From assembly GCA_021780675.1 (NCBI GenBank), contig JAJXYH010000013.1, positions 593 through 64,592 of the forward strand: 64,000 nt of DNA, read 5' to 3'. The notes beneath the pieces are model-generated. The model saw only the letters and a list, made by a program, of their open reading frames with translations. It was not told where the DNA came from and did no database searches. This stretch comes from a bacterium (lineage in GTDB: Bacteria > Patescibacteriota > Microgenomatia > Levybacterales > UBA12049). Position 1 is the first letter of the stretch; the number at the start of each line of letters is the position of its first letter. The position numbers and the translations under genes are program-made. Of the stretch, positions 2,878 to 41,092 are shown piece by piece.

Positions 2878-3447
2878 GTGGACAGCATATCTGTTTTAAT
2901 AATTTTGTCTTTAGTAATTTACATAATAAATGTAATTCCTGTGTTTATGCCTCCTACATGGACCATCCTTGCGTTTTATTACATCCAGTTTCATCCGCCT
3001 CTTTTACCGGCTGCCGTAGCCGGAGCGATCGCGGCAACACTGGGAAGAGTAACTTTATATTATATTTCTAAAAATCATTTCCGCAGGTTTTTTTCCAAAA
3101 AAGATTTAACAAACTATGATGCATTGGGACTTTTTTTTAAAAAAAAACAAAAATTATCGGCACAACTTTTTTTAACTTACGCATTCTTCCCTATTTCTTC
3201 TAATTATGTTTATATTGCCGCCGGACTATCAAAAATTAATATTAAACTTTTGGCGGGATGTTTTTTATTGGGAAGAATTTTTAGTTATACTTTTTGGGTG
3301 GCAACCTCACATGTAGTTTTTACAAGAATTGACCAAATTTTTTCAAAGGAATTATCCAATACAGGTGTTATTATCCTTGAAATTGTAGGTTTATTAGTCT
3401 TAGTTGGAATAGGAAAAATAAATTGGAAAAGAGTGCTGCACGTATAA
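2878..3447 (+). CDS. Small polytopic membrane protein, possibly of the DedA/TVP38 (VTT-domain) family. GTG start.
   Basis: 4 to 5 hydrophobic helices and a G-R-containing loop reminiscent of DedA. TATAAT at about 2863 just upstream. Confidence 0.35.
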   Translation: MDSISVLIILSLVIYIINVIPVFMPPTWTILAFYYIQFHPPLLPAAVAGAIAATLGRVTLYYISKNHFRRFFSKKDLTNYDALGLFFKKKQKLSAQLFLTYAFFPISSNYVYIAAGLSKINIKLLAGCFLLGRIFSYTFWVATSHVVFTRIDQIFSKELSNTGVIILEIVGLLVLVGIGKINWKRVLHV

Positions 3448-3495: not shown

Positions 3496-4164
3496 ATGAA
3501 GAATAAAAACGTACTCATAGCTTTTGTTGTAGTTTTACTTCTTTTGCTTTTAGGAGCCGGAGCATACCTTATGCTTAGTAAAAACGCAACTAAGTCCGCT
3601 CAAGTACCAACAGAAAAAACTCAAAAAACAAATACCCAAGCAGAGCAAACAACAAAATCTCTTTTAGATCTTGTTAATTCCGGACAAAAATTACGTTGCA
3701 CGTATAAAACAGCTATTGCCAACGGAACATCCGACGGCACTGTTTACATCTCGGGACAAAACATTAGAGCAGACTTTAATGCTACCGTACAGGGTCAGAA
3801 GCCTACGCAAACCAGTATGATTAAAAATAGAACCACTACTTATATTTGGGGATCTATCATGCAAGGCAAGGGCATAAAAATGACCACAAGCTTGGATGCA
3901 ATGGCGCAAAGTAAAGAGGCTGCTCAGTATGTAGATCCTACTCAAAAACTTGATTATAGTTGCGCTCCGTGGAATGTTGATTCTTCACTTTTCACTGCTC
4001 CTTCAAACGTTGAGTTTACCGATATGACAAATCTTATGGTGCCAAAAGCAACCGTTACGGGAACCCAAACACAAACCGCTCCATCCTCTTCTGATCCATG
4101 CGCTCAACTTACGGGTAGTGTTAAAACCGCTTGTGAAAATGCTTTACAGCAAAGCGGTAAATAG
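3496..4164 (+). CDS. Secreted or membrane-anchored hypothetical protein (N-terminal signal anchor, Thr/Gln-rich, conserved Cys pairs).
   Basis: N-terminal hydrophobic segment followed by a polar extracytoplasmic domain. No recognisable catalytic motif. Confidence 0.4.
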   Translation: MKNKNVLIAFVVVLLLLLLGAGAYLMLSKNATKSAQVPTEKTQKTNTQAEQTTKSLLDLVNSGQKLRCTYKTAIANGTSDGTVYISGQNIRADFNATVQGQKPTQTSMIKNRTTTYIWGSIMQGKGIKMTTSLDAMAQSKEAAQYVDPTQKLDYSCAPWNVDSSLFTAPSNVEFTDMTNLMVPKATVTGTQTQTAPSSSDPCAQLTGSVKTACENALQQSGK

Positions 4165-4165
4165 T

Positions 4166-4312
4166 TTCATCACGAGTTCCGCCTGATAAGCGGACGGCAA
4201 CCGAAAGACAAACGGTGCCAATCCGGAAAGGAAGATGTGTCCTTAAACGTTATCTTAAGGAAAGTCTAATTAAAAGCATTTATGCCTTCCGGATTTTCGG
4301 GAGGTTTTTTGT
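4166..4312 (+). ncRNA. SAM-I-family (S-box) riboswitch with an intrinsic-terminator expression platform, in the metK leader.
   Basis: Conserved S-box core elements GGCAACC (4196-4202) and GGUGCCAAUCC (4214-4224). P1-like 5' strand UCAUCACGAG resembles the consensus UUAUCAAGAG. Terminator hairpin CCUUCCGG-AUUUU-CGGGAGG plus U6 at 4285-4310. The 5' arm of the terminator can alternatively pair with CCGGAAAGG (4223-4231). Sits directly upstream of metK. Confidence 0.55.
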
Positions 4313-4384
4313 TGCGGAGGCAACATTCCGAACAACTCGCGAAGCGGATTAGTTGTGAGGAATTATGAACTTTAAATTTTATAT

Positions 4385-5476
4385 ATGAATTATACTTTTA
4401 CATCAGAATCTGTTTGTGCTGGACATCCGGATAAAATTTGCGATTCTATATCCGACGCAATTTTAGATGCAATTTTAAGCGAAGATAAAAAGGCGCGGGT
4501 TGCAGTCGAAACCGTTGCAGCATTTAATAGGGTTGCAATTGTTGGAGAAGTAACAACCCATGCAAAAGTCGACTATAAAAAGATTGCCAGACAAAGAATA
4601 ATAGACTTAGGATATACAAATCCAAAATTTAATTTCACCGATAAATCCAGGATCGAAGTCGATATCCACGAACAATCACCGGAAATTTATAAAGGTGTAA
4701 AAACTAAAGGTGCCGGAGATCAGGGAATGATGTTCGGCTTTGCATGTACCGAAACTAAAAGTTTAATGCCAATGCCAATAACTATTGCGCATAATTTAGC
4801 AAAAAGATTAGACGAAGTTAAAAAAGACACCCTACCGTTTTTAAGACCGGACGGAAAAACGCAAGTAACTATAGAGTATAAAAATAATAAACCTTACAAG
4901 GTTAACCAAATCGTTATTGCTGTCCCCCATGACGAAAATAAATCATTAAATCAAGTAAAAAAGGCATTATATAAGCATGTCGTTAAATATGTATTAGATG
5001 AATTCGGATTTAAACTATTAGAAAAAGATTTAATTGTTAACGGAACAGGCGTTTGGCATATTCCCGGACCGGCAAGCGATGCAGGGTTAACAGGCAGAAA
5101 AATCATAGTAGATACCTATGGCGGATATGCAAGAGTTGGTGGCGGAGCGTTTTCGGGAAAAGACCCAACCAAAGTTGATAGAAGCGGCGCCTATGCGGCA
5201 AGATTTTTAGCAAAAAATATCGTCAGGGAAGGCTTAGCGGAGAAGGCAGAAGTAAGACTTGCTTATTTTATCGGCGCAAAAAATCCAAGTATGCAGGAGA
5301 TTGAAACTTTTGGTACAGCCAAAGCAAGCGATAAAACAATCAAAAATTTTATGTCTAAAATTCTTGATACCTCTGTTAAGGGAATTTTGAAAGGGTTAGA
5401 CCTGCAAAGGCCTATTTATCTGCAAACTTCAGCTTACGGCCATTTCGGACGAGAAATATTTCCTTGGGAGAAATAA
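4385..5476 (+). CDS. metK: S-adenosylmethionine synthetase.
   Basis: GHPDKICDSISDAILD signature and the C-terminal glycine-rich P-loop GGGAFSGKD. Confidence 0.9.
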   Translation: MNYTFTSESVCAGHPDKICDSISDAILDAILSEDKKARVAVETVAAFNRVAIVGEVTTHAKVDYKKIARQRIIDLGYTNPKFNFTDKSRIEVDIHEQSPEIYKGVKTKGAGDQGMMFGFACTETKSLMPMPITIAHNLAKRLDEVKKDTLPFLRPDGKTQVTIEYKNNKPYKVNQIVIAVPHDENKSLNQVKKALYKHVVKYVLDEFGFKLLEKDLIVNGTGVWHIPGPASDAGLTGRKIIVDTYGGYARVGGGAFSGKDPTKVDRSGAYAARFLAKNIVREGLAEKAEVRLAYFIGAKNPSMQEIETFGTAKASDKTIKNFMSKILDTSVKGILKGLDLQRPIYLQTSAYGHFGREIFPWEK

Positions 5477-5498
5477 GTTTTTGTGCTAAACTAAGTTT

Positions 5499-5744
5499 AT
5501 GAGAAAACTTTTGGCGCTTATCATTTTTTTGTTCCTGATAATCCTGATACCAAATTATTTTACCCAAAGGCAAACAGATGCATATAACAGCAATAATACG
5601 CCGACTACACAGAACGTACAACAACCTACAAATATCCCAACCCCAACTCCTACGGTAATCCCGGCAACTCCTACTCCGCTTCCTCCTATGCAAAACTCTC
5701 TGCAGCTTCCTTCATTTAGAGTAAATGGCGGCGGAGATGATTAA
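5499..5744 (+). CDS. Small membrane-anchored Pro/Thr-rich hypothetical protein.
   Basis: N-terminal TM helix, then a PTPTP low-complexity region. Confidence 0.3.
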   Translation: MRKLLALIIFLFLIILIPNYFTQRQTDAYNSNNTPTTQNVQQPTNIPTPTPTVIPATPTPLPPMQNSLQLPSFRVNGGGDD

Positions 5745-5750
5745 ACTACC

Positions 5751-6545
5751 ATGATTGACGCCCACTGTCATCTTAATTTCCACGCATTTGAAAATGATTT
5801 GGATGAAGTAGTAAAACGAGCAAAGGAAAAGGGCGTTGAAAAAATTATTAATGTAGGAACAAGCCTTGAGTCAAGCCAAAAAGCGGTGGAGCTGGCAGAA
5901 AAATATGAAAATCTTTATGCAATTGTTGGTATTCACCCCCACCATGCGGACAAACTTGAAAAAGGCTGGGAAGATGAATTAGAAAAAATTGCTAAACACC
6001 AAAAAGTAATTGGTATTGGGGAAATCGGGCTTGACTATTATAGTTATAAATCAAACGGAATTGTTGATCCCAAACTGCAAAAAGAGGTTTTTGAAGCTCA
6101 AATTAACCTTGCACATAAATTAAGACTACCGCTGCAAATCCACAACCGTCATGCAGGAGACGACATTTTAGCCATACTTTATAGGCACAAAAATAGTCTT
6201 TTGGAAACTCCGGGAATGTTTCATTGTTTTGCAGGAAGCCGCGATGTTTTAATTGATGCTTTGAAGTTTGGTTTTTATATTGGATTTGATGGTAATTCTA
6301 CTTATAGTGGGCTTGCACCAGGTGAAACTGTTGAACTGCCCGAACTTATCAAGATGACGCCCCTTGATAGAATTGTTGTAGAAACCGATTCTCCATATCT
6401 TACCCCGATACCCCACCGCGGTAGCAGAAACGAACCTTCCTATGTTATAATTACAGCTGAATTCATAGGTAAAATTAAAAATACTCCTTTCGAAAAATTA
6501 GAAAAAATCACAACGGAAAATGTTCTAAAAATATTTAAAATATGA
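5751..6545 (+). CDS. tatD: TatD-family metal-dependent hydrolase/DNase.
   Basis: N-terminal DAHCHL metal-binding motif. Internal HxH and terminal D are conserved. Confidence 0.85.
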   Translation: MIDAHCHLNFHAFENDLDEVVKRAKEKGVEKIINVGTSLESSQKAVELAEKYENLYAIVGIHPHHADKLEKGWEDELEKIAKHQKVIGIGEIGLDYYSYKSNGIVDPKLQKEVFEAQINLAHKLRLPLQIHNRHAGDDILAILYRHKNSLLETPGMFHCFAGSRDVLIDALKFGFYIGFDGNSTYSGLAPGETVELPELIKMTPLDRIVVETDSPYLTPIPHRGSRNEPSYVIITAEFIGKIKNTPFEKLEKITTENVLKIFKI

Positions 6546-8035
6546 CACAAACTTTTAACAGAATTTTCATCCGATATCCGGTAAAAACCAAAAGGGCTTT
6601 GGAAATCTTACCGGGTTTTGTCTCATGGATGCTTATACTTTTTCCTCTATGGGGTTCTTTTTTTATACCATTGGTGGTTGCCTATTTCATCCTGTTTTTT
6701 GACGTATATTGGTTTTATAAAAGTTTTTCTCTTGTAATTACTGCCTATATTTCATCAAGAAAAATCCGACAGGCGGAAAAAGAAAATTGGCTGGAGGCTG
6801 CAAAACCACTAGAGAATTTTGAAAACACAAGCCATATTGTAATTATTCCTAATTATAAAGAAACATTAGAAAAACTAAGAAAAACTATTGAAAGCTTGGC
6901 TGACCAAAGTTTCCCGGCAAAAAGAATTTACGTTGTACTTGCCATGGAAAAAAGAGAAACCGAAGCAAAAGAAAGAGCAGAAAAACTAACCACAGAATTT
7001 AAAGATGTCTTCGGAGATATTTTTGCAACCTTTCATCCCGATATTCAAGGTGAAGTAAAAGGTAAATCATCTAACGAAAGCTATGCCGGAAAGGTTGCCT
7101 ATAAAAAATTGACTAAAGAGAAAAAAATTGACTATGACTTTACAACTATTTCCTCTGTTGATGCCGATTCTATCTTTGATAAACAGTATTTTTCGTATCT
7201 TACCTTTCTATTTTTAACCGATAAAAATAGGTATGAAAAGTTCTGGCAATCGGCCAATGTTAATTACAATAATTTTTGGAATGTTCCGGCTCCGATTAGA
7301 GTCATTTCATTTTTCGGAAGTCTATACAGAACCGCACTTTTGGTACAAAAAGACAGGCTCGTTTCTAATTCCACTTATTCGCTATCCCTTAAGCTTATGC
7401 ATGAAATCGGATTTTGGGATACAGACGTAATTCCAGAAGATTATAGAATATTCTTTAAGGCATTTTTTAAAAAACAGGGACAAGTATATATGGAGCCAAT
7501 ATTCTTAAAAACTTCCATGGATGCCCCACTTTCTTCAAGCTATGTAAAATCGCTTAATAATAAATACCAGCAGGAAAGAAGATGGAGCTGGGGGGCATCT
7601 GACGATGCTCTGTTTATAAAATGGTGGCTTACTATTCCTAATGTTCCCTTTTTTAGAAAAACACACTTAGTTTTTAATGTTCTGGTAGATCATTTTTTAT
7701 GGCCGGTAAATTGGTTTATAATTACAATAGCTGCAAATATTATGCCGTTTGTTAATCCGGTTTTTACAAGAACTACACTTGGTTACAATCTTCCCAGGAT
7801 GGCTGGATTTATCTTAACCCTCTGTCTATTAGCAACTTTTGGAATGATAATAATAGATTATAGACAACGAAGTTCGCATCAAAAGACTTCGAAAAAAAGA
7901 CAACTTTTATTTCCACTGGAATTTTTGCTTCTTCCTATTATCGGATTTTTCCTTTCTTCACTTCCCGCTCTAATTTCTCATACACAACTTATGCTTGGCA
8001 AAAGACTTGAGTATAAAGTTACAGAAAAACTTTAA
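6542..8035 (+). CDS. Polytopic membrane glycosyltransferase-like protein (GT2-like cytoplasmic domain flanked by TM helices).
   Basis: N-terminal TM pair, a roughly 250-aa soluble domain with a D..D-type acidic patch (SSVDADSIFD), then a C-terminal TM bundle. Start overlaps the tatD stop (ATGA). Confidence 0.45.
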   Translation: MTQTFNRIFIRYPVKTKRALEILPGFVSWMLILFPLWGSFFIPLVVAYFILFFDVYWFYKSFSLVITAYISSRKIRQAEKENWLEAAKPLENFENTSHIVIIPNYKETLEKLRKTIESLADQSFPAKRIYVVLAMEKRETEAKERAEKLTTEFKDVFGDIFATFHPDIQGEVKGKSSNESYAGKVAYKKLTKEKKIDYDFTTISSVDADSIFDKQYFSYLTFLFLTDKNRYEKFWQSANVNYNNFWNVPAPIRVISFFGSLYRTALLVQKDRLVSNSTYSLSLKLMHEIGFWDTDVIPEDYRIFFKAFFKKQGQVYMEPIFLKTSMDAPLSSSYVKSLNNKYQQERRWSWGASDDALFIKWWLTIPNVPFFRKTHLVFNVLVDHFLWPVNWFIITIAANIMPFVNPVFTRTTLGYNLPRMAGFILTLCLLATFGMIIIDYRQRSSHQKTSKKRQLLFPLEFLLLPIIGFFLSSLPALISHTQLMLGKRLEYKVTEKL

Positions 8036-9525
8036 TGATTAACTTATTAAAAAAATTAGAGAAAAACATTAATTTTTGGTTTTTAGTAGGAATATCTTTT
8101 TTATTTTTCTTGTTAAGATTTCCTTCTCTTTTTGAACCTAACTGGTATGGAGATGAAGGAATTTACCAAGTATTGGGATTAGGAATAAATGCGGGGAGAC
8201 TTTTATACAGAGATATTTTCGACAACAAACCACCGCTTCTATATATACTTTACAGCCTCGTAAATTCTAATTTATTTTGGATAAGATTTCTTTCCTTAGT
8301 TGCAGGACTTTTTGCTGTTTGGGGATTTTATTATTTATCTAAGAAAATTTTAAAAACAAAAAAGGCAAGCTTTGTTACAACCGGAATTTTTGCAATACTC
8401 TTCGGTCTTCCTTTAATTGAGGGCAACATCGCAAATGCGGAAAATTTTATGTTGCTTCCTAATATTATTGGTGCAATTCTTGTTTTAAAATCCATAGAGG
8501 TTGCAAGCCTTAATAAAAAATTGATACTGCTTTCTGCATCAGGCTTTATATTGGGTTTATCATTTTTATTAAAAATAGTTGCTGTTTTTGATTTTGCAGC
8601 GTTTTTTATGTTTTTATTTATTGCAGATTTTCCCGGTAAAATTTCGCAATTTTTTGAAAAGGAAAAATTTTTATTAGCCTTTAAAAAACTTTCCGTTTTT
8701 ACCGTTAGCTTTGCCCTTCCGATAATTCTTACTACTTTATTTTTTATTCTAAATAATTCCCTCTCCTATTTCTTAAAAGCAGTTCTTTTCAATAACGTAG
8801 GGTATGTAGGATATGGCAACCAATTTATAATTCCTCAGGGCTTACTGATTATTAAGCTTGCTTTATTGTTAATATCTATACTTTTCTTATTTATTAAAAG
8901 AAAATCATTTGATAAAACTTTTATCTTTGTAGGTATTTGGTTGGGTTTTTCGCTTTTTGATACGTTTTTTTCGCAGCGACCTTATACCCATTATGTATTA
9001 ACACTTTTACCCAGTTTTTGTCTTATGGTTGGTTTACTTTATCAAGATAATAAATCATCTAAACTTGCCGGAATTTTTGCTTTATCAACTCTTATAATAG
9101 TGCTTCTCAATTTTAAGTTTTATTCTAAAACCGGTTATTATTATCAAAATTTTATTTCATACATCACTGGTTTTGAAAAAACTTATGATTACAGGAAATT
9201 TTTTGATGGTAATACTCCGCGTGATTATGAGCTTGCGGACTATCTACTTCTTCAAGAAAAATCCGGATCAAAAACTTTTATCTGGGGTAATAATGCGGAA
9301 GTTTATACACTAATTAATTCTCTTCCTCCCGGAAGATATACTGTTGCTTATCATATTACCAACTATAAAGACGGTTATCAAAATACACTAGACGGATTAA
9401 AAAATAGTCCTCCTCAATTTATTGTAATAATGCCAAATGTTCCATCTTATCCATTCAGCCTTTACGGCTATAATCTAAAAATTAATTTAAGCGGTATAAA
9501 TATTTATGAAAAAATTAATCAATAA
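8035..9525 (+). CDS. GT-C fold membrane glycosyltransferase (ArnT/PMT/GT83-GT39-like).
   Basis: At least 10 TM helices. First extracytoplasmic loop carries WYGDEGIY, the DE motif of GT-C enzymes that use polyprenyl-phosphate sugar donors. C-terminal soluble domain. Confidence 0.55.
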   Translation: MINLLKKLEKNINFWFLVGISFLFFLLRFPSLFEPNWYGDEGIYQVLGLGINAGRLLYRDIFDNKPPLLYILYSLVNSNLFWIRFLSLVAGLFAVWGFYYLSKKILKTKKASFVTTGIFAILFGLPLIEGNIANAENFMLLPNIIGAILVLKSIEVASLNKKLILLSASGFILGLSFLLKIVAVFDFAAFFMFLFIADFPGKISQFFEKEKFLLAFKKLSVFTVSFALPIILTTLFFILNNSLSYFLKAVLFNNVGYVGYGNQFIIPQGLLIIKLALLLISILFLFIKRKSFDKTFIFVGIWLGFSLFDTFFSQRPYTHYVLTLLPSFCLMVGLLYQDNKSSKLAGIFALSTLIIVLLNFKFYSKTGYYYQNFISYITGFEKTYDYRKFFDGNTPRDYELADYLLLQEKSGSKTFIWGNNAEVYTLINSLPPGRYTVAYHITNYKDGYQNTLDGLKNSPPQFIVIMPNVPSYPFSLYGYNLKINLSGINIYEKINQ

Positions 9526-9859
9526 TATTAAATCTGACAAAATTACATTAAGAGGATTTTTACTTAGTTTAATTTTAGGCTTGTTAACAAGTGTGTACGT
9601 ATTGTTTTATTACGGATCACTTCCTCCATTTATTCCTATTTTTAATCAACTTCCCTGGGGGGAACAAAGATTTACCTCTACTATTGGAATTTTTATTCCT
9701 ATCATTATATTTTCTTTATTATTTCTATTTAACCTAATTGTTACCGGAGTTATTTATAACAAAAATCCCCTAATTGCAAGGATAATTGCCGCAACAACTC
9801 TTCTTATAGCTATCATGAATTCTATTTTTATTATAAGAACAATTTTAGTAATAATTTAA
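9506..9859 (+). CDS. Small 3-TM membrane protein, unknown function.
   Basis: 117 aa, three hydrophobic helices. Translationally coupled within the glycan operon. Confidence 0.35.
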   Translation: MKKLINNIKSDKITLRGFLLSLILGLLTSVYVLFYYGSLPPFIPIFNQLPWGEQRFTSTIGIFIPIIIFSLLFLFNLIVTGVIYNKNPLIARIIAATTLLIAIMNSIFIIRTILVII

Positions 9860-10938
9860 TGGAAAATTTAATCCAAATTATTTTTTTTCCGTTTTTAACA
9901 TCTCTTATAGTTACTGCAGTTACAACGCCTTTTATATTACGAATTCTCAAAAAGTTTAACATTGTGGATGATCCAAATAAACATAAACATCCTGCAATAA
10001 TTCACAAAATACCGGTGCCAAGAGGCGGTGGTATACCTCTTTTTATCGGTGCATTTGTGGCAAGCATATTCTTTCTTCCATTTGATAAAGTTTTAATTGC
10101 TACATTTATAGCGAGTTTTATTTCGCTTACGGTTGGAGTATTAGATGATAAATTCGATATCTCCCCTTATTTAAGATTTTTTGTAAATATATTTTGCGCA
10201 ATATTTGTTGTAGCTATGGGAGTAAGCATTCCTTTTATAACCAATCCTTTCGGGGGAATATTATTTTTAAATAATTTTCATCTACCATTTCTTAATAATA
10301 TTTCCATGCCGTTTTTCTCGGAGCTAATTGCAATTGTCTGGATTGTTTGGGTTATGAACATGTTAAATTGGAGTAAGGGAGTTGATGGTCAAATGCCGGG
10401 AATTGTAGCCATTTCCGCAATAACCATTGGCATTCTTAGCCTAAGGTTTTCCCATTTAGACGTTTCAAGTCAAACTGCAGCAACTCTTTCTTTTATAATT
10501 GCCGGTGCTTCGTTGGGTTTTTTAATATTTAATTTTTCTCCGGCTAAAATATTCCCGGGATACGGTGCAACTAGTATATATTTGCTTTTAGCAATTGCGT
10601 CAATTTTATCAGGAGCAAAACTTGCAACTGCAATACTTGTTATGGGAGTTCCTATGACCGACGGATTATTTACAATACTTAGAAGGATTTTGTCGGGAAA
10701 ATCACCCTTTTGGCATGATAAAAAACATCTTCACCATTTGTTATTGGGTTTAGGATTAAGCCAAAGGCGCGTTGCATTGTTTTATTGGATTATTTCTGCT
10801 ATATTAGGCACAATATCATTAGTTCTTTCCAGTAAGGGTAAGCTTTTTGCGATAATAATGTTAGTAATTTTAGTAGGTGGATCATTATTATTTTTACATT
10901 ACTTAATTAATAAAACCAATAATGAAACTAATTTATAA
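9859..10938 (+). CDS. Polyprenyl-phosphate N-acetylhexosamine-1-phosphate transferase (GT4, MraY/WecA family).
   Basis: VLDDKFDISP (DDxxD Mg-binding) and the NxxNxxDGIDGL-like motif NWSKGVDGQ. 10 to 11 TM helices. 359 aa. Confidence 0.8.
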   Translation: MENLIQIIFFPFLTSLIVTAVTTPFILRILKKFNIVDDPNKHKHPAIIHKIPVPRGGGIPLFIGAFVASIFFLPFDKVLIATFIASFISLTVGVLDDKFDISPYLRFFVNIFCAIFVVAMGVSIPFITNPFGGILFLNNFHLPFLNNISMPFFSELIAIVWIVWVMNMLNWSKGVDGQMPGIVAISAITIGILSLRFSHLDVSSQTAATLSFIIAGASLGFLIFNFSPAKIFPGYGATSIYLLLAIASILSGAKLATAILVMGVPMTDGLFTILRRILSGKSPFWHDKKHLHHLLLGLGLSQRRVALFYWIISAILGTISLVLSSKGKLFAIIMLVILVGGSLLFLHYLINKTNNETNL

Positions 10939-11860
10939 CATATTAAGACTTTTAAGACCCAGGCAATGGGTAAAAAACTTCGCTCTCTTTGCGGCAATTA
11001 CATTTGCCGGACAACTCTTTAATCCACCCGTATTTGAAAAAGTGGTATTTAGCTTTTTTGTTTTCTGCGGAATTGCAAGCTCTACATATATTATGAATGA
11101 TATCTTTGATGCTAAAAAAGATAGGCTACACCCGTTTAAAAAATTTAGGCCTATTGCTCATGGTGATGTGCCAATACCCTTTGCAACCGGTCTTGCATTA
11201 TTTTTAATTTTCATATCATTAATAGTAGCCAGAGCTATTACTCCCGGATTTTTTGCTTTATCCATACTTTATTTGCTAATACAGTTTATGTATTCAGGTT
11301 TTTTAAAAACAATTGCTGTAATCGACATACTTTTAATTGCAACCGGATATATTTTAAGAGTTTATGCGGGAGAGTTTGCAAGTGGATTTCATATTTCGGT
11401 TTGGCTATTATTAACAACTATCTCTATCTCGCTTTTTTTGGCAATCGGAAAAAGAAGGTCGGAATTAACGCTTTTATCTCACGAAAAGAATTTGAGTCTA
11501 TCCGAAACACGGGCATCATTAACCCATTATTCGGAAAAATTACTTGATGTATATGCATCAATCTTTGCAACTTCAACTTTTATTTCTTACTCTCTTTTTA
11601 CCTTTTTGGAAAATCCCGGCGGATTTAAATTATCTTTCGGAGTTTTGCTCCCCGATTTTCTGCCCACGTTTTTACAACGCAAGTGGTTAATGATTACTAT
11701 TATTCCTGTTGTTTACGGACTAATGAGATATATTCAGGATATTTATGAAAAGGATGAAGGCGAAAGCCCTGAAAAAGTTCTTTTTTCAGACAAACCATTG
11801 TTAGTAACTGTAGCTATTTGGACAGTCTTAGTAGTTTTTCTTGTATATTTTGTCTCCTAA
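10922..11860 (+). CDS. UbiA-family prenyltransferase of the decaprenyl-phosphate 5-phosphoribosyltransferase (DPPR synthase) subfamily.
   Basis: N-terminal LRPRQWVKN hallmark of the DPPR-synthase subfamily. NDxxDxxxD motif (NDIFDAKKD). 8 to 9 TM helices. Confidence 0.65.
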   Translation: MKLIYNILRLLRPRQWVKNFALFAAITFAGQLFNPPVFEKVVFSFFVFCGIASSTYIMNDIFDAKKDRLHPFKKFRPIAHGDVPIPFATGLALFLIFISLIVARAITPGFFALSILYLLIQFMYSGFLKTIAVIDILLIATGYILRVYAGEFASGFHISVWLLLTTISISLFLAIGKRRSELTLLSHEKNLSLSETRASLTHYSEKLLDVYASIFATSTFISYSLFTFLENPGGFKLSFGVLLPDFLPTFLQRKWLMITIIPVVYGLMRYIQDIYEKDEGESPEKVLFSDKPLLVTVAIWTVLVVFLVYFVS

Positions 11861-12708
11861 GGATGTTTTTGCGCGTATTGTGAGCTTATCCACCCGTTGC
11901 TACCATCAGATAATTTTATTTCATACCATCCTGTTTTTTCATCTAAAAGTTCGTATGTTTCACCCGGTTTTACCTGAGATATTTCTGCAGCGGAAAGACT
12001 TGCATCTTGTCTAACCCTTAAAAACCCGGTTGGCGTTTGTAATATTAACACTGCTTGTGTATTTGATTTTACTCCGGACTGAAGTTCTGACGGCATCGTA
12101 AGCGCCGAACTTGAGGCGTTAAAATCGGGATCTATCCCTAAATAAATCAAGGCTTCCAGTTTATATCCCAAAACACTTCTAACTCTTATAATTTTATCTT
12201 TGTATCCTTTATAAGAAACTTCTAATTCATGATCACTTTCTTTAACATTTTTAATAATTTGGGGACTTACTCCTTGTAACTTACTGTCTAAAAAAACTTG
12301 TGCGCCGGATGGAGAGGTCACAACGGCAATTTGAGCATCATTTTTATTGTCTATCGAAGATAAACTAATAATACTTGCATTACCCAAACCTTTTTCTGCA
12401 AAATTTTTATCAACTACGGTTAATGTTTTAGGGGAAATGGTAACTGTCTGTTCAAAAGGATTAGCACTGCCAGACTGTGGCACTAACTTAAGAGTATAAC
12501 TTCCTTGATAAAGCATGTCTTTTAAATCACATTTACAAAGTGGTGTTACTCCAACTAACTTATCGTTTAAATAAACTTTTGAGTTGGGATTTGAAGTAAT
12601 CTGCAAAGCACCTTTGCCTTTATTTAATATAAATAAATATGAAATTACTATGAATACTAAAACTGCTGCCAGAATTGTAAGAAAAACATATAAAAATTTC
12701 TTCATCAA
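11857..12708 (-). CDS. Membrane-anchored extracytoplasmic protein with a PEGA domain and a C-terminal bacterial SH3 domain.
   Basis: N-terminal signal anchor. PEGA-like NSKVYLNDKLVGVTPL. C-terminal GWYEIKLSDGSNGWISSQY, typical of SH3b. Confidence 0.5.
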   Translation of the reverse strand: MMKKFLYVFLTILAAVLVFIVISYLFILNKGKGALQITSNPNSKVYLNDKLVGVTPLCKCDLKDMLYQGSYTLKLVPQSGSANPFEQTVTISPKTLTVVDKNFAEKGLGNASIISLSSIDNKNDAQIAVVTSPSGAQVFLDSKLQGVSPQIIKNVKESDHELEVSYKGYKDKIIRVRSVLGYKLEALIYLGIDPDFNASSSALTMPSELQSGVKSNTQAVLILQTPTGFLRVRQDASLSAAEISQVKPGETYELLDEKTGWYEIKLSDGSNGWISSQYAQKHP

Positions 12709-12773
12709 AGTATTTTAACATTATAACTTAAAAGGGGGTATAAAAAAACTGTTTACTCCGAATATTTATTGTA

Positions 12774-14411
<1,638 letters not shown>

Positions 14412-17303: not shown

Positions 17304-18971
17304 CTAAGGGTTAAACTTGTTTCCGTCAATTGTTTCTTCCGATTTTTTAAGAATCTGTCTCCAATCACCGAACTTTTTGAAAAGCATAATAAACATTGTT
17401 GCCTCTTTAACGTCAAATAGCCAGGTTAAGAAAAGGTACAGACAAAGTCCGACAAAACTTGAAATTCCGGTTAGAAGCAAAAGGTTAATCGTTTTTGTGG
17501 TATCAAAAACCAACTGATCTAAAAGTTTTATGGGAATATAAAGTGCAAAAGCCGTAAAAGCTGTAGAAATAAATATTTGGGAAGTTGTAATAATTAAATG
17601 TCTTTTTTCAAATCCTTTTACTTTAATATCCAATAAGATAAACATAATAATTAAATTGATAACCGATGCAATCGAAAAAGCCAAAGCTATTGCTTGTATT
17701 CCAAAATGGTAATAGAAAACAAAAATACTTCCTAAAATAATCATAATGGCGGTTGAAAATACCCCAACCGAAAGAGGAGTTTTTGTATCATGTAATGCAT
17801 AAAACCCTCTTGAAACCAAATATATTAAGGCTTGCGAAAAAATTGAAATACTAAAAAAAGCTAAAGTTCTTCCCGTAGCAACAGTTGCATCCCAATCAAA
17901 TTGAGCGGCTCCAAAGACAAGTCTTACAATCGGAATCCTTAATACCAGAAAAAGTACGGAAAACGGCAGGATTAAATATAAAAGCTGATTAAAACTGGTA
18001 ATAAAAGTTGTTTTAAATGCCTCAAGATTATCCTTTTCTTTGGAAAGAACCGGGAATGCAGCCTGTGCAATAGCTTGTCCAAATAAAACTACGGGGGCAA
18101 AAGCAAGTGTTTGTGCATAATCAAAGATTACATAATTCCTACCCGGGTTTTGTAAAAATGACACCATGGTAACGGTAATAACCGTTCCCAACTGAAAAAC
18201 AGCAATTGAAAGCGTCCTTGGCCAAATTAATTTAAACACATCTATAACACCGGACGTTCTTATAAATTCCGGCGAAAGATTTGGGATAAAGGAAAATCCC
18301 ATTTTTTTAACAAAAGGTATTTGAATTAAAACGAAAATTAATGCTCCTAAGATTACCCCAAGCGCAGCTGAATAAATTCCTACAAATGGTGAAAATATAA
18401 TAATTCCAATGATGATTCCCAAGTTATATAAGGCAGAGGCTATACCCGGGATAAAAAAATGATTATAAGATTGTAAAACCGCCGAAAAAAAGCTTCCAAC
18501 TATAAAAAGCATTTCCCCAAAAATTATTATTCTTGTTAGAGATGCCATTAGAGCCAGCTGGTCAGGAGGAAAACCCGGGGCCATAAGAGATGAAAACTGT
18601 TTTGCAAAAATAAATAATACTATCGATAAAGCGGCGAATACTAAAAGACTAATCGCTAAAAGCGTAGAAGCTACTTTATGTGCCTCATGCTCCTTGTTCT
18701 TTGCCAGGTAATCTGAAAAAACAGGTATAAAAGCGGATGATAAAGCTCCGGCAATAATTAGTTGAAACAAAAAGTCTGGAAGTCTTGTTGAGGCAAGATA
18801 AACACCAAGTGTGTTTGATGCACCAAAAATAGAAACTAGAAGTCTTTGTCTAAAAAGTCCTAGAATTTGCGAAAAAACAATTGTTCCCATGATTACAACA
18901 GCTGCAGTAATAATGTTATTTTGCTGTTTGAGAAGAAAATTTAAGCTTTTTTTAATAAAATCACCCGGCAT
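17304..18971 (-). CDS. murJ: Lipid II flippase MurJ/MviN.
   Basis: 14 TM helices. N-terminal pattern ILGLFRQRLLVSIFGAS...LPDFLFQLIIAGALSSAFIPVFS matches MurJ. Confidence 0.85.
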   Translation of the reverse strand: MPGDFIKKSLNFLLKQQNNIITAAVVIMGTIVFSQILGLFRQRLLVSIFGASNTLGVYLASTRLPDFLFQLIIAGALSSAFIPVFSDYLAKNKEHEAHKVASTLLAISLLVFAALSIVLFIFAKQFSSLMAPGFPPDQLALMASLTRIIIFGEMLFIVGSFFSAVLQSYNHFFIPGIASALYNLGIIIGIIIFSPFVGIYSAALGVILGALIFVLIQIPFVKKMGFSFIPNLSPEFIRTSGVIDVFKLIWPRTLSIAVFQLGTVITVTMVSFLQNPGRNYVIFDYAQTLAFAPVVLFGQAIAQAAFPVLSKEKDNLEAFKTTFITSFNQLLYLILPFSVLFLVLRIPIVRLVFGAAQFDWDATVATGRTLAFFSISIFSQALIYLVSRGFYALHDTKTPLSVGVFSTAIMIILGSIFVFYYHFGIQAIALAFSIASVINLIIMFILLDIKVKGFEKRHLIITTSQIFISTAFTAFALYIPIKLLDQLVFDTTKTINLLLLTGISSFVGLCLYLFLTWLFDVKEATMFIMLFKKFGDWRQILKKSEETIDGNKFNP

Positions 18972-20866: not shown

Positions 20867-22137
20867 ACAAGTCGGTTTTAAATAAAAGAATCCCTACTCT
20901 CTTAGGGTTGATTATAATTATCTTCGGACTAAGTGTTACTACCCTCTTAACAAATAAAGCAACATTTTTACAATCAAACGCAACAGAAAATAAACAACCG
21001 CAAGACGTAAGAATTACTAATATAAGTGATAATTCATTTACTGTTTCTTATACAACAGTTTCTATGGAAAGTGGATTTGTTAAATACGGATCAACCGGAT
21101 CGCTAGATCAAACTGCATTTGATGACAAAGACACCACTCAAAAATTACAGACACATATTGTACACAGCATCACATTAAATAACCTAAATCCTGATACTAA
21201 ATATTATTTCTCTATTAATAGCGGTGGGGAAACATACTTAGATAATAATAACAACTTCGAAATAACAACTGCTGCTAATACATTTAACGCAACTTCTAAT
21301 TCTCCTGTTTCAGGAAGAGTGATGCTTGCAAATTCAAACCCTCCCAAGGAAGCAATTGTTTACATAACAGTAGATAACTCTCAAGTCTTATCAACACTCG
21401 TCAATACTGATGGTACATATAAAATAGACCTCCAGCATCTATTAAATTTTAATTTATCAAATACTCTTAGTCTTACAAGAGATTCCGTGATAAAAATGCT
21501 TGTCGCAGGAGATTCGTTATCCTCAAATGTCACATTGAATTATTACCAAAGCGCTGATGTCCCCGTAATCACACTTTCAAACAATTATGACTTTAGAGAA
21601 GGCAATCAACAAACAGCAAGTCCATCTGCTGCACTTGAGGGATTTCCAATGCAAAATATAACGTCATCAAAATCTAATAGTATTAGCATACTAAGCCCAT
21701 CTAAAGATCAGGTTATTTCTACTCAACAACCGGTATTAAAGGGTCAAGCAACGCCCAACCAAAATTTACAAATTACTATTCATTCGCAACAGGTCGTAAA
21801 AGCAAATGTTATTACCGACTCAAGCGGCAACTGGAGCTATCAACCAACTACACCACTTGATCCGGGAACACACACAATAACAGTAACCGGTAAGGATTCA
21901 AAAGGTATTCTAAGAACAATTACCGAAAGTTTCACGGTTTATGCTGCTGAAAATTCTTCTACAGCAACTGCTGCCATAGAAACACCGACTAATACACCCA
22001 CTACCGTAACTGCACAAAATAAAAAGCAAACATTGATAACAACAAATAACACCTCTATAATCACAGCAATTATTGTAGGATTAATAATTACTTTTGTTGG
22101 GGGTTTTATTTTCCTTCTGTCCCGCAAAGGAATTTAA
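20863..22137 (+). CDS. Cell-surface protein with fibronectin-III-like and Ig-like domains, anchored by an N-terminal signal/TM and a C-terminal TM helix.
   Basis: FN3-like block (ITNISDNSFTVSYTT...LNPDTKYYFSI). Ig-like block (PGTHTITVTGKDSKG). C-terminal hydrophobic helix followed by RKGI. Confidence 0.45.
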   Translation: MNKSVLNKRIPTLLGLIIIIFGLSVTTLLTNKATFLQSNATENKQPQDVRITNISDNSFTVSYTTVSMESGFVKYGSTGSLDQTAFDDKDTTQKLQTHIVHSITLNNLNPDTKYYFSINSGGETYLDNNNNFEITTAANTFNATSNSPVSGRVMLANSNPPKEAIVYITVDNSQVLSTLVNTDGTYKIDLQHLLNFNLSNTLSLTRDSVIKMLVAGDSLSSNVTLNYYQSADVPVITLSNNYDFREGNQQTASPSAALEGFPMQNITSSKSNSISILSPSKDQVISTQQPVLKGQATPNQNLQITIHSQQVVKANVITDSSGNWSYQPTTPLDPGTHTITVTGKDSKGILRTITESFTVYAAENSSTATAAIETPTNTPTTVTAQNKKQTLITTNNTSIITAIIVGLIITFVGGFIFLLSRKGI

Positions 22138-22138
22138 T

Positions 22139-23416
22139 ATGAAAATAGCCATAATTGGTGCAGGCTTTACCGGCCTTTCCGCAGCATATGAGTTATCGAA
22201 AAAGGGTCATAAAGTAACTGTATTTGAAAAAGATAAAAACCCCGGTGGTCTTGCAGTGGGATTTAAACAAAAAGGATGGAAATGGTCGCTTGAAAAGCAT
22301 TACCACCATTGGTTTACTAACGACAAGGAAATTATAAGCTTAGCCAAAGAAATTAAATTTCCGGTAGTCACTAGACGTCCAAAAACAAGTATATATGTTA
22401 ATCAAAATACATATAAGCTTGATTCCCCGCTAAACGTTATCTTCTTCCCACTTTTACCTATTATTGATAGGTTTAGATTGGGATTTTCTATTGCTGTTTT
22501 TCGATTTAATCCTTTCTGGAAACCATTAGAAAAATATAACGCTGTTAAAATCTTACCAAAACTTATGGGCAAAAAAGCCTATGAAATGATCTGGGAACCT
22601 CTTTTTATAAATAAATTTGGTAGGTTTTCTCAAAATGTTTCTCTGGCCTGGTTTTGGGCAAGAATTATCAAAAGAACACCATCGCTTTGTTATCCTAAAG
22701 GTGGATTCTTAGAGTTTGCAAATAGCTTAACAAAGAAAATCGAGGAAAAAGAAGGAGTATTTTATTTTAGTACCGAGGTCAAAAAACTCGAGTCTGATAA
22801 TTTACCCCTAATTACATACCAAAAAGAAAACGCAGTAATAGAAACAGAAGAGTTTGATAAAGTCATAGTAACTACTCCTATCTTTATCTTCTTCTCGTTT
22901 ACTCCACAGCTTCCCGAAAAGTATAAAAATAATATACTAAACTTGAAAAGCTTGGGTGCAATAAATTTAGTATTAAGACTTAAAAAACCATTTTTTAAAG
23001 ATAATACTTATTGGTTAAGCGTATGCGATAAAAATGCTCCGGTTATGGCAATTGTTGAACACACCAACTTTATCGACAAAAAAAACTATAATAATGAACA
23101 TTTACTTTATCTTGGAAATTACAAAGAGCGGGAAAATAGTTTATTCTCAATGGATGCCAATCAAATCTTAAGTCTATTTGACCCCTATTTAAAAAAAATT
23201 AACCCCAAATATTCAAAATTTATCATCGGATATGATCTTTTTAAAGATCCTTTTGCTCAACCGGTTATTCCCGTTAATTATTCAAAGATAATTCCTAAAA
23301 TGATTACACCTCTTAAAAATGTGTATCTTGCAAATATCGAACAGGTATACCCCTGGGACAGGGGAACTAACTATGCCGTTGAGCTTGGAAAAAGAGTTGC
23401 TGATAAAGTAATTTAA
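22139..23416 (+). CDS. FAD-dependent Rossmann-fold enzyme resembling UDP-galactopyranose mutase (Glf) / amine-oxidase family.
   Basis: N-terminal GxGxxG (IIGAGFTGLSAAYEL). HHWFTNDK corresponds to Glf HIFHTNDK. A KxxxWG....ARIIKR block is collinear with E. coli Glf. The ORF track begins upstream at 22094, but the ATG at 22139 directly follows the stop of the previous gene. Confidence 0.5.
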   Translation: MKIAIIGAGFTGLSAAYELSKKGHKVTVFEKDKNPGGLAVGFKQKGWKWSLEKHYHHWFTNDKEIISLAKEIKFPVVTRRPKTSIYVNQNTYKLDSPLNVIFFPLLPIIDRFRLGFSIAVFRFNPFWKPLEKYNAVKILPKLMGKKAYEMIWEPLFINKFGRFSQNVSLAWFWARIIKRTPSLCYPKGGFLEFANSLTKKIEEKEGVFYFSTEVKKLESDNLPLITYQKENAVIETEEFDKVIVTTPIFIFFSFTPQLPEKYKNNILNLKSLGAINLVLRLKKPFFKDNTYWLSVCDKNAPVMAIVEHTNFIDKKNYNNEHLLYLGNYKERENSLFSMDANQILSLFDPYLKKINPKYSKFIIGYDLFKDPFAQPVIPVNYSKIIPKMITPLKNVYLANIEQVYPWDRGTNYAVELGKRVADKVI

Positions 23417-23418
23417 TA

Positions 23419-25041
23419 ATGAAAAAAATAAAGCTTTTCGTAATTAAATATAAGCTGGAGATTATTATAGTTATTTTCTCTTTAATATTTTCTACTTGGC
23501 TTATGTTTTCTTCCTTTTCTTACGAAAATGGTTTTATGCAAATCTCAACAAAATCATGGAGTGATTTTGCTAGTCATATTCCCTTAATTAGATCATTTTC
23601 TTTTGGAAATAATTTTCCGCCTGAATATCCCCTTTTCTTAGGACCTGCTATCAAATATCATTTTTTATTTTTTGCAGTGGTTGGGTATCTTGAGCGTTTT
23701 GGCTTAAGAATTGATTATGCGTTTAACATCCCCTCAATTTTAGGATTCAGTTTTTTAATTTTTATGATTTATATTTTTTCAAAATATTTATTTAAGTCTA
23801 AAAGTGTTGGTGTATTAAGCATAATCTTCTTTTTGTTTAATAGTTCGCTTGATTTTGTAAAATTTTTTACAAAAACCCCGTTATCTCTAAACACCCCCAT
23901 AGATATTATTACTAATAAAACTTTTCCGTCCTTTGGTCCTTATGATAATAGTGTAATTTCTGCATTTTGGAACTTAAATATCTATACAAACCAAAGGCAT
24001 CTTGGATTGTCTTACGCGTTGTCTCTACTTTTAATCTATTTTGTATTAAAAAATATTACAAATAAAAAAATATCTTATAAATACTATCTATTACTAGGAG
24101 TTGCAACGGGATTATTGTTCTTTTTAAACATGGCAGTCTTTTTAATGACGATGATTATACTGCTTTGTATGCTTCTAATATTTTCTAAAAATAGGGTAAA
24201 ATTATTCATTCTAATTTTATCTACCGGAGTTATTGCTTTTCCACAATATCTGTATGTTGAATCCGGACCATCAATTTTTCATATAAAAATTCATGTGGGA
24301 TATCTTTTGAATCGTGTTGATTTGTTTTCCTTTTTAAATTATTGGTGGCAAAATATAGGATTGAATCTAATTCTTATACCAATTGGTTTTATACTTTCGG
24401 ACAAAACAGCTAAAAAAGTAATTATTTCATTTTTTACCCTTTTTATGGTCGGAAATGTATTACAATTTTCTCCCGAAATTGCTGCTAATCATAAATTTTT
24501 TAATTTTTTTGTAATTATAGGCAGCATGTATTCGGCGTTTTTAATTATCAAGCTATTTAGAAAAAACATTAAATACAAATTACTTGGCATAAGTTTAGTT
24601 TTATTACTTACCCTGTCTGGAATTATCGACTTCTTCCCAATCTACAATGACACTAAAATCAATCTTGCCGACTATTCGCAAAACAAAAATATTTTATGGA
24701 TTAAAGATCATACGTCTCAAAAGGCAAAATTTCTAAATACAGACTATCTTTACGATACAGCATCATTAGCGGGAAGAAGAATATTTTTAGGATGGCCTTA
24801 TTTTGCATGGTCACAAGGGTATGATACGACTTCAAGAGATAATTTACGAAAATCTCTACTGTTAACTAACAATTTTTCTTATTTTTGTAGTAATATATCA
24901 AAATATAAAATCAGTTTTGCCGAAGTTAATACAAATTCACAGGATGCTAAGGTAAACATAAATTTTTTTAACAATAATTTTCCTAAGGTTTATACTAATA
25001 ATAGTAATTATAGTATTTACAATTTAAGTAGGTGCAGATGA
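23419..25041 (+). CDS. Large polytopic membrane protein, putative GT-C-type glycosyltransferase.
   Basis: 540 aa, at least 11 TM helices. Conserved acidic/aromatic first loop. C-terminal soluble domain. 3-nt gap after the Glf-like gene. Confidence 0.4.
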   Translation: MKKIKLFVIKYKLEIIIVIFSLIFSTWLMFSSFSYENGFMQISTKSWSDFASHIPLIRSFSFGNNFPPEYPLFLGPAIKYHFLFFAVVGYLERFGLRIDYAFNIPSILGFSFLIFMIYIFSKYLFKSKSVGVLSIIFFLFNSSLDFVKFFTKTPLSLNTPIDIITNKTFPSFGPYDNSVISAFWNLNIYTNQRHLGLSYALSLLLIYFVLKNITNKKISYKYYLLLGVATGLLFFLNMAVFLMTMIILLCMLLIFSKNRVKLFILILSTGVIAFPQYLYVESGPSIFHIKIHVGYLLNRVDLFSFLNYWWQNIGLNLILIPIGFILSDKTAKKVIISFFTLFMVGNVLQFSPEIAANHKFFNFFVIIGSMYSAFLIIKLFRKNIKYKLLGISLVLLLTLSGIIDFFPIYNDTKINLADYSQNKNILWIKDHTSQKAKFLNTDYLYDTASLAGRRIFLGWPYFAWSQGYDTTSRDNLRKSLLLTNNFSYFCSNISKYKISFAEVNTNSQDAKVNINFFNNNFPKVYTNNSNYSIYNLSRCR

Positions 25042-40649: not shown

Positions 40650-40672
40650 AATTTATTATAGCAAATTATGCT

Positions 40673-41092
40673 TTATCTCTTAAACTTTGGGTAATAATTT
40701 ATTGTTAGAGCAATTACAAAACTTAATAACATTACCAGCTGACAAGTTAAACAAACAGGACAAATAACATGTAGAACAAATATCTCCTGAATCGTTAAAT
40801 AAAGGCAAAATATCATTCCAAATGTTACAATTGCCAAAACTGTTTTAGATTTCCTTAGTATTGATGACAATAATATGCCTATATACCCAAACAAACCAAT
40901 AATTGAAACTGGTATTCCCAAAATGGTTGAAAGAGCACCTTTCGTAACAGCATCGCAATTAACAGAACTATTTATATAGCATGACTCTAATACTGGTTTT
41001 GTTAAATAATTATAAAAAAGATACAGTGCAAGTAGTATTCCTATTACAGATAGAGTAGTCAAAACTTTCCAAATATTCAGTTTACTTAACAT
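40673..41092 (-). CDS. Vitamin K epoxide reductase (VKOR) family thiol-disulfide oxidoreductase.
   Basis: 4 TM helices. Loop cysteines (CYINSSVNC) and active-site CPVC in the last helix. Confidence 0.7.
   Translation of the reverse strand: MLSKLNIWKVLTTLSVIGILLALYLFYNYLTKPVLESCYINSSVNCDAVTKGALSTILGIPVSIIGLFGYIGILLSSILRKSKTVLAIVTFGMIFCLYLTIQEIFVLHVICPVCLTCQLVMLLSFVIALTINYYPKFKR

Follow-up and report, generated by a model that had tools for sequence, protein, structure and literature searches.

A 64-kb window of the genome of a Levybacteria member belonging to the Candidate Phyla Radiation (CPR) (contig JAJXYH010000013.1 of assembly GCA_021780675.1, positions 593 to 64,592) carries six consecutive open reading frames (ORFs) on its plus strand. 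They encode, in this order, a TatD-like hydrolase, a glycosyltransferase of family 2 (GT2), a glycosyltransferase of the GT-C fold, a 117-aa membrane protein, a sugar-1-phosphate transferase of the PNPT superfamily (referred to below as the PNPT) and a UbiA-type protein (Table 1). The genome has a size of about 0.7-0.9 Mb, and the term window is used here for the whole 64 kb analyzed (~33% G+C), to which all negative results given for the window refer. The six genes with short overlaps that had been listed in a first-pass annotation of this DNA were all found in place, their junctions being, in ORF order, ATGA (4 nt), TAATG (1 nt), 20 nt, TAATG (1 nt) and 17 nt. No recorded names for these exact six proteins were found in public sources.

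Table 1. Features of the glycan gene cluster and its immediate surroundings (positions in the window)
Feature	Coordinates	Strand	Basis or remark
Terminator-like hairpin, 9 bp stem plus T-run	4284..4305	+	likely 5' boundary of the metK-to-UbiA transcription unit
metK (S-adenosylmethionine synthetase)	4385..5476	+	probably co-transcribed; outside the conserved glycan cluster
81-aa ORF, N-terminal hydrophobic stretch	5499..5744	+	gene status uncertain
TatD/YchF-family metal-dependent hydrolase	5751..6545	+	PF01026 1e-81; TIGR00010 274 bits (cut-off 206)
Membrane-integrated GT2 glycosyltransferase, cellulose/hyaluronan-synthase-like fold, 497 aa	6542..8035	+	predicted structure, motifs
GT-C fold glycosyltransferase (PMT_2 / 'GT39'-annotated type)	8035..9525	+	predicted structure; variable cluster member
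117-aa membrane protein, no known family	9506..9859	+	3 transmembrane helices predicted by eye; conserved LPPxxPxFxxLPWGE loop
PNPT-superfamily (WecA/TagO/MraY-type) polyprenyl-phosphate sugar-1-phosphate transferase, CPR-specific clade, 359 aa	9859..10938	+	PF00953
Polyprenyl-phosphate 5-phosphoribosyltransferase (PPPRS; Rv3806c/DPPR-synthase subfamily of UbiA)	10922..11860	+	profile scores, 8j8j match, ligand residues
Protein with PEGA domains, C-terminal SH3b and N-terminal hydrophobic membrane-anchor-like segment	11857..12708	-	PEGA 1.2e-12, SH3_3 3.6e-12

The membership of the UbiA-type protein in the polyprenyl-phosphate 5-phosphoribosyltransferase (PPPRS) or DPPR-synthase (DPPRS) subfamily is well supported by its profile scores, its full-length homology to Mycobacterium tuberculosis Rv3806c and the conservation of ligand residues. 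The protein matched Pfam UbiA at 2e-17, and its four highest NCBIfam models were all of the PPPRS type (161-227 bits), i.e. NF008978, decaprenyl-phosphate phosphoribosyltransferase (226.7 bits, above the cut-off of 207), NF008977 (224.9 bits, just under the cut-off of 234), NF006088 (165 bits, this 482-position model being matched over profile positions 194-384 only) and a third DPPRS model (161 bits). In contrast, the models for ubiquinone, menaquinone, heme-o, chlorophyll and archaeal-lipid prenyltransferases reached about 50 bits at best (50.6). The alignment to Rv3806c in PDB 8j8j (E value 1.9e-36) covered query residues 3-229 and 254-304, that to PDB 8j8k spanned residues 3-302, and the identity to Rv3806c was 37%. 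The ligands of Mg, ribose, 5'-phosphate and pyrophosphate have been listed from the cryo-EM analysis of Rv3806c, and those of the phosphoribose are not common to true UbiA prenyltransferases (PMC10994848). When the ligand set of Rv3806c for phosphoribosyl pyrophosphate (PRPP) and Mg was compared (R22, K28, Y70, N73, D77, K87, R90, Q135, Y138, K143, Y157 and K208), 11 of the 12 residues were identical in the window protein, the exception being K208, which is replaced by Ala at a position that varies throughout the family; the first ten (R22 to K143) were invariant in 49 of 49 CPR sequences compared. The LRPRQWVKN N-terminus on which the DPPR-synthase assignment had originally been based is real, and its RPRQWVKN stretch holds the PRPP ligands R22 and K28. 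By homology, the protein would transfer a phosphoribosyl group from PRPP to a polyprenyl phosphate acting as its lipid substrate. NCBI and JGI automatic annotation of the orthologues already reads 'decaprenyl-phosphate phosphoribosyltransferase'.

Scanning GTDB with a single genome for each species yielded 80 loci, whose neighboring genes were compared to the window proteins by BLAST and profile hidden Markov models (HMMs). As far as the contigs reach, the order GT2-[GT-C]-small protein-PNPT-PPPRS, together with a convergent PEGA/SH3b gene, recurs in 51 other CPR loci, which belong to Levy-, Collier-, Davies-, Chisholm- and Amesbacteria, WWE3 and Paceibacterota and show PPPRS identities to the window protein from 82% down to 41%. 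Among the best 120 database matches, identities were 71-90% for the GT2 and 73-84% for PPPRS. Two WWE3-type loci, L046 and L049, have 0.9-3.3 kb of other genes, including a response-regulator gene, between the PNPT and PPPRS genes. In a neighbor-joining tree the 49 CPR PPPRS sequences formed one clade with no non-CPR member within it, and the mean PPPRS identity was 57% within CPR versus 35% between CPR and non-CPR sequences, a pattern consistent with vertical inheritance. The cluster had been regarded as unexpected in a CPR-like genome, a view that does not hold if rarity is meant: it is vertically conserved over CPR lineages, with a UbiA gene that the public pipelines have already annotated. 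No open-access papers linking the PPPRS/decaprenyl-phosphate enzyme or pathway to CPR bacteria were found. The individual protein families of the cluster are already known; what is new is the CPR-specific architecture, in which PPPRS is combined with a PNPT of altered metal site and its small partner, an invariant GT2 and a facultative GT-C, with no recognizable phosphatase, flippase or epimerase. In the same survey, several metagenome-assembled genome records labeled 'uncultured Gammaproteobacteria' or 'Pseudomonadales' (L008-L012, L015, L016, L022, L023, L025, L029, L030, L034-L036, L041-L043, L048 and L051) were seen to carry the CPR cluster order with PPPRS identities of 42-71%, and the taxonomy of these records looks wrong.

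Gene overlaps by themselves are weak operon evidence in this genome, because 13 of the 38 same-strand neighbor pairs in the window overlap and 94% of the window is coding. A TATAAT-like -10 box whose end lies 4-11 nt upstream of the start codon was found at 26 of 60 genes (background, 7.7%) and at 0 of 8 consecutive genes from metK (4385) through the UbiA gene. Since Shine-Dalgarno-like motifs precede only 7 of the 60 genes of the window, their absence is not specific to the cluster and was rejected as a sign of translational coupling; the genome appears to use leaderless mRNAs largely. A scan of positions 4100-13000 for sigma-70 promoters and terminators was uninformative, with fewer promoter-like sites (24) than in shuffled sequences (35.5), and its only notable element was the hairpin upstream of metK. 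Taken together, the missing -10-like boxes and the gene order conserved in divergent CPR lineages uphold the operon-like unit that had been proposed, and metK through the UbiA gene probably form one transcript.

The PNPT matched PF00953 (Glycos_transf_4) at 6.5e-24 (85 bits; cut-off, 27) and scored below the cut-offs of both the WecA model TIGR02380 (101 bits; cut-off, 326) and the mraY model TIGR00445 (42 bits; cut-off, 192). A profile of its orthologues searched against the PDB matched MraY with 72-75 bits over the full length and GPT with 23 bits. Residues D96-D97, N167, D176 and H290xH292-H293 are invariant or nearly so among the orthologues. The Mg-site Asp (D265 of MraY_AA, D252 of DPAGT1) is replaced by Tyr235 in the window protein, and the CPR orthologues have Tyr (45 of 51) or Phe (6 of 51) at this position, which lies within the well-aligned block GxxLGFLxFNxxPA...G. 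In MraY, D265 is essential; in DPAGT1, D252 chelates Mg, yet a D252N variant is hyperactive.

The 117-aa protein had been recorded only as a small membrane protein of the operon, and the search results refine its role toward a link with the PNPT. No Pfam family was found in any of 17 diverse orthologues, and there was no PDB match even by profile. By profile HMM, the protein is encoded directly 5' of the PNPT in 50 of the 50 other CPR loci covering the region, and in WWE3-type loci it is fused to the PNPT N-terminus (L046:4080-5597, 505 aa; L049:6345-7883, 512 aa). By the Rosetta-stone argument, these two fusions suggest that the 117-aa protein works with the PNPT as a partner or subunit, and they argue against a function as the flippase of the pentose donor. 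A resemblance to GtrA/SMR-type flippases or to DUF1648-like proteins was considered and dropped, there being no Pfam or PDB match and the PNPT fusion pointing elsewhere.

Sequence-only PDB searches with the GT2 and GT-C proteins gave nothing meaningful, and structure prediction was therefore needed for both. The GT2 protein, whose Pfam match is weak and below the gathering threshold, gave a model of lower confidence in the membrane part (predicted local distance difference test value, pLDDT, 70.7) that matched PcManGT (20.8), hyaluronan synthases (19.9 and 19.8, with 373-378 residues aligned) and BcsA (18.8). At least 95% of 44 orthologues retain the motifs D207xD209, E299-D300 and Q344xxR347W348. 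The GT2-like assignment of the first-pass annotation is thus confirmed at the level of the fold despite the weak Pfam match, and the protein is modeled as a GT-A domain plus a cellulose-synthase-like membrane domain. Its orthologues carry the NCBI/JGI labels 'cellulose synthase/PNAG synthase-like'. PcManGT acts in lipid-linked N-glycan synthesis, and its rank as the best match would fit the extension of a lipid-linked primer; processive GT2 synthases generally require no such primer.

The GT-C protein scored below threshold with PMT_2, and its GT-C fold was confirmed by the predicted structure. The initial PNPT and GT-C assignments were right at the superfamily level. The motif E34-P-x-x-Y38-x-D40-E41 follows the first transmembrane helix, in the first extracytoplasmic loop, and its D40-E41 pair, already noticed as a DE motif, is conserved in at least 95% of the orthologues; the C-terminal mixed alpha/beta domain is presumed, by analogy, to be extracytoplasmic. 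Structural neighbors include AftA, AftB, AftD and Emb, and nearer ones are ALG3, PIG-M, PMT and ArnT. A GT-C orthologue, labeled 'glycosyltransferase family 39 protein' by NCBI/JGI, is encoded in 35 other CPR loci and is missing from the cluster in 14. One of these 14 (L039) has a non-orthologous PMT_2 GT-C in the same slot, and the other 13 have no GT-C in the cluster. In addition, L047 carries a second, PMT-type GT-C directly after the PPPRS gene, and a Wzy_C gene lies nearby, downstream, in L046 and L049. These substitutions and additions suggest that transferases acting on lipid-linked glycans have been recruited repeatedly to the cluster.

In the three-component pentofuranose systems, the closest ones described, polyprenyl-phosphate-ribose-5-phosphate is formed by PPPRS from PRPP and loses its 5'-phosphate to an HAD or PAP2 phosphatase; epimerases, where present, turn the ribose into arabinose or xylose, export of the donor is the task of a flippase, and the sugar is transferred by a GT-C on the outer side of the membrane (PMC11127046). 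Non-CPR loci of the survey follow this scheme. The Marinomonas fungiae locus L071 (8989-13501) encodes PPPRS followed by LPG_synthase_TM, FAD_binding_4 (DprE1-like), SDR (DprE2-like) and HAD phosphatase proteins, a gene row with the appearance of a complete pathway to a lipid-linked arabinofuranose donor in a gammaproteobacterium. The four L071 proteins following PPPRS were used as phmmer probes against the window ORFs, the 51 CPR loci and 31 non-CPR loci. DprE1- and DprE2-like genes lie directly 3' of PPPRS in 13 of the 31 non-CPR loci, and an HAD phosphatase is fused or adjacent to it in 4 of the 31. In contrast, no DprE1-like, DprE2-like, PAP2 or HAD-phosphatase gene was found in the window or within ~9 kb of PPPRS in any of the 51 CPR loci, and a Pfam survey of the window gave no FAD_binding_4 match. 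The FAD oxidoreductase at 22094-23416 was considered as a DprE1 analogue and set aside, being a member of the uncharacterized NF005560 family (amine-oxidase/phytoene-desaturase-like) in a separate cluster with no link seen. No dedicated flippase of the MATE or SMR/GtrA type was identified in the window, where the sole nearby MOP-family protein is MurJ (17304-18971). TatD was considered as the missing 5'-phosphatase and found to be without support, since tatD goes with metG in other CPR loci and the Chisholmbacteria cluster lacks it; we regard it as a remote candidate. No lineage-specific statement on PRPP synthase was found in the literature on Microgenomates or Levybacteria. As PPPRS has no DprE1/DprE2-type epimerase beside it in any CPR locus, ribofuranose or phosphoribose, and not arabinofuranose, is the most likely sugar to be delivered, and the link to the arabinofuranose donor of Corynebacterineae that had been drawn from the UbiA protein is not sustained.

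On balance, we lean toward the view that the cluster is a CPR envelope-glycan module building a ribofuranose-containing wall polymer, and not a mycobacterial-style arabinan. Of the lipid-linked donor pathway that had been suggested to build an envelope polymer, the donor class made by PPPRS, the GT-C and the PNPT are retained and the arabinofuranose is given up. PPPRS would make polyprenyl-phosphate-(5-phospho)ribofuranose from PRPP on the cytoplasmic face of the membrane, after which the lipid-linked pentose would be dephosphorylated by a phosphatase and flipped by a transporter. The GT-C, with the lipid-linked pentose as donor, would then add ribofuranose to an acceptor outside the membrane; in lineages without an in-cluster GT-C, an analogue encoded elsewhere would decorate the glycan. 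The translationally coupled PNPT and its small partner with three transmembrane helices would make a polyprenyl-diphosphate-N-acetylhexosamine primer, and the cellulose-synthase-like GT2 would build the glycan backbone, either on this primer or processively. A LytR-CpsA-Psr (LCP) transferase encoded 15 kb downstream presumably hands the product to the wall, the PEGA/SH3b protein may bind it, and tatD and metK would ride along in the transcript. We infer all of these steps beyond the enzyme-class assignments. The window encodes this LCP glycopolymer-peptidoglycan transferase (27220-28344), MurJ, MurD, glutamate racemase (MurI) and FemAB, and a peptidoglycan wall able to receive the polymer is therefore expected. 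The LCP gene belongs to a second envelope cluster (22094-28344), where it lies on the opposite strand; this cluster also encodes the NF005560-family FAD oxidoreductase, a 540-aa protein of no family in a region of 28% G+C, and a DUF2298/chlor_Arch_YYY membrane protein.

Several observations weigh against the ribofuranose module. The absence of the GT-C from 14 CPR clusters means that its link to PPPRS is not obligatory at the cluster level, the lack of the canonical Mg-site Asp makes the activity and donor of the PNPT uncertain, neither a phosphatase nor a flippase for the lipid-linked pentose could be identified in the window, and confidence in the membrane part of the GT2 model is only moderate. 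Moreover, overlap and tight packing are normal in this genome, and co-transcription is no proof of a shared pathway. The genes might accordingly be co-transcribed neighbors serving separate pathways, with the GT2 making an exopolysaccharide, the PNPT a wall primer and PPPRS feeding another GT-C, and with the order reflecting inherited synteny; the frequent overlaps, the presence of housekeeping genes (metG, tatD and groEL/ES) in the same conserved neighborhood, the variability of the GT-C and the primer independence of processive GT2 synthases would all agree with this. We nevertheless consider it unlikely, since the GT2-small protein-PNPT-PPPRS order survives at only 41-50% PPPRS identity while the flanking genes change, the small protein and the PNPT exist as a gene fusion, and non-orthologous GT-C or Wzy_C genes have apparently been recruited into or beside the cluster more than once. 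A lower probability is given to the use of polyprenyl-phosphate-ribose-5-phosphate without dephosphorylation, which would yield an anionic phosphoribosyl wall polymer as a teichoic-acid substitute with PRPP as the only special activated donor. The lack of HAD-PRP or PAP2 5'-phosphatases at the CPR copies, in contrast to the HAD proteins of the non-CPR loci, would fit such a polymer, as would the conservation of the 5'-phosphate ligands K28, Y70 and Y/F157 and the coexistence of an LCP transferase and a TagO/WecA-like PNPT with no teichoic-acid synthesis genes seen in the window. The proposal is, however, purely inferential. The 5'-phosphate could be removed by housekeeping phosphatases, mycobacteria being able to do without Rv3807c; genes for teichoic acids may be located beyond the window, and we know of no GT-C that uses a phosphorylated sugar donor.

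It is improbable, and more so than the phosphoribosyl polymer, that the PPPRS product is dephosphorylated and then epimerized by DprE1/DprE2-like enzymes encoded elsewhere, the GT-C being an arabinofuranosyltransferase for an arabinan-like polymer made through decaprenylphosphoryl arabinose (DPA). PPPRS is a bona fide Rv3806c homologue, Aft and Emb proteins are among the structural neighbors of the GT-C, and the DNA analyzed is only part of the genome, all of which would suit the DPA route, but the epimerase genes are absent from the window and from all 51 CPR loci. The lowest probability of all is given to the PNPT being the MraY (lipid I synthase) of this lineage, in which case the cluster would connect peptidoglycan precursors to pentose decoration. 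MraY chains gave its best solved-structure profile matches, and no other MraY gene was found in the window although MurD, MurJ and MurI are present; the PDB ranking may favor MraY because the search returned no WecA- or TagO-named chain. Against this identity, the score with the mraY model is far from its cut-off and lower than that with the WecA model, all CPR orthologues have Tyr or Phe in place of the essential Asp265, and the loop motif HLHH is closer to WecA/TagO than to MraY with its PxHHHxE.

Beyond the ribofuranose module itself, we put forward only tentatively, as a possibility that we rate well below it, that the cluster represents a widespread, vertically inherited CPR pathway in which a ribofuranosyl or phosphoribosyl wall polymer is made with PRPP as the activated donor, with the GT2, the PNPT of altered metal site with its obligate small subunit, and PPPRS as its core. 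CPR bacteria may live largely on scavenged nucleosides, which would readily supply PRPP. If this were true, the polymer may replace teichoic acids and act as a surface determinant in attachment to the host. To our knowledge, almost nothing is known experimentally about the envelope glycans of CPR/Patescibacteria, though these cells live attached to others. The strong identity and the order kept in at least seven named CPR lineages suggest an important envelope function, and the cluster yields a testable prediction, a ribofuranose-containing polymer made from PRPP via a lipid carrier, with three readily assayable enzymes. It also brings to light a clade of PNPTs whose metal site is altered, along with a new putative small partner protein, and it would extend pentofuranose-donor systems past Proteobacteria and Actinobacteria. 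Where CPR genes carry the automatic annotation 'decaprenyl-phosphate phosphoribosyltransferase', this should not be taken as evidence of arabinan.

The genes flanking the glycan cluster are less constant. The metK gene is located 5' of the cluster only in the closest relatives (L005-L007), and the 81-aa ORF has no Pfam family and a BLAST match only in L001, which is the same genome. The tatD gene comes after metG in those Collier, Paceibacterota and WWE3-type loci that were examined, and in the Chisholmbacteria locus L044 tatD is missing and metG directly adjoins the GT2 gene; tatD is therefore likely a housekeeping passenger traveling with metG, which corrects its initial inclusion among the envelope-glycan genes. 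Downstream, nearly all CPR loci have the convergent PEGA/SH3b gene immediately behind the UbiA gene; in the window this gene has a TATAAT box of its own, and its product is a candidate wall- or polymer-binding protein. A VTT/DedA-domain membrane protein is encoded upstream of the operon (2878-3447; 30.7 bits, just under the Pfam threshold); DedA-family proteins have been implicated in the recycling of polyprenyl phosphate.

Other features were observed elsewhere in the window. Glycan-related genes at 39426-45570 encode an NAGPA-type phosphodiester glycosidase, a GT4-family Leloir glycosyltransferase and a 646-aa protein containing two stretches of GH130 (mannoside phosphorylase). An AdoCbl-II riboswitch (60524-60599, minus strand), whose 40.5 bits exceed the gathering score, is located directly 5' of a gene (59312-60466) for a 384-aa protein without Pfam or NCBIfam family, and downstream of the ribonucleotide reductase large-subunit gene (61149-63560; Ribonuc_red_lgC and TSCPD domains). 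A tRNA-Ile gene with anticodon TAT (56238-56310, minus strand) is located between a tyrosine-recombinase/integrase gene and a gene for a TrwB/TraG-like type IV coupling protein, and an integrative element may have its edge in the 55290-58727 region.

At the level of single proteins, the GT2 shares with BcsA, hyaluronan synthase, PgaC/IcaA and PcManGT the arrangement of GT-A domain and membrane helices and the D, DxD, ED and QxxRW motifs, and it differs from the solved membrane GT2 synthases in its low identity (~10-13%) and in having no PilZ or other regulatory domain. The PNPT has in common with WecA/TagO and MraY the PF00953 family, alignment over the full length and the DD, N, D and HxHH motifs, but it falls below the equivalog cut-offs of WecA and MraY, has exchanged the Mg-site Asp for Tyr/Phe clade-wide, and is accompanied by an obligatory upstream small partner with three transmembrane helices that is sometimes fused to it.

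As a system, the CPR cluster resembles in part the mycobacterial and corynebacterial DPA pathway (Rv3806c, Rv3807c, DprE1/DprE2, Emb/Aft, WecA-primed arabinogalactan and LCP ligation), with which it shares PPPRS and the occurrence of a PNPT initiator, a GT-C enzyme and an LCP ligase within one genome region. In contrast to that pathway, no DprE1/DprE2 or PAP2 was found, the GT-C is nearer to ALG3, PIG-M, PMT and ArnT than to Aft/Emb, the lipid is presumably C55 and not decaprenyl, and the genes are clustered and probably co-transcribed with a GT2 that lacks a DPA counterpart. The ORF15-ORF14-ORF12 system of Citrobacter youngae O1/O2 (Kelly et al., PNAS 2024, PMC11127046) likewise has a UbiA-type PPPRS beside a GT-C in a glycan locus, and in three-component systems of this type ribofuranose is the default sugar when no epimerase is present, as in the CPR cluster. 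The latter differs from these systems in lacking both an HAD-PRP phosphatase domain and a flippase gene of the MATE or SMR/GtrA type, in a GT-C of PMT_2 type, dispensable at the cluster level, in place of GT136, and in its invariant partners, namely the PNPT with its small membrane protein and the synthase-like GT2. It is also found in a CPR bacterium that has peptidoglycan-wall genes, and not in a Gram-negative producer of O antigen.

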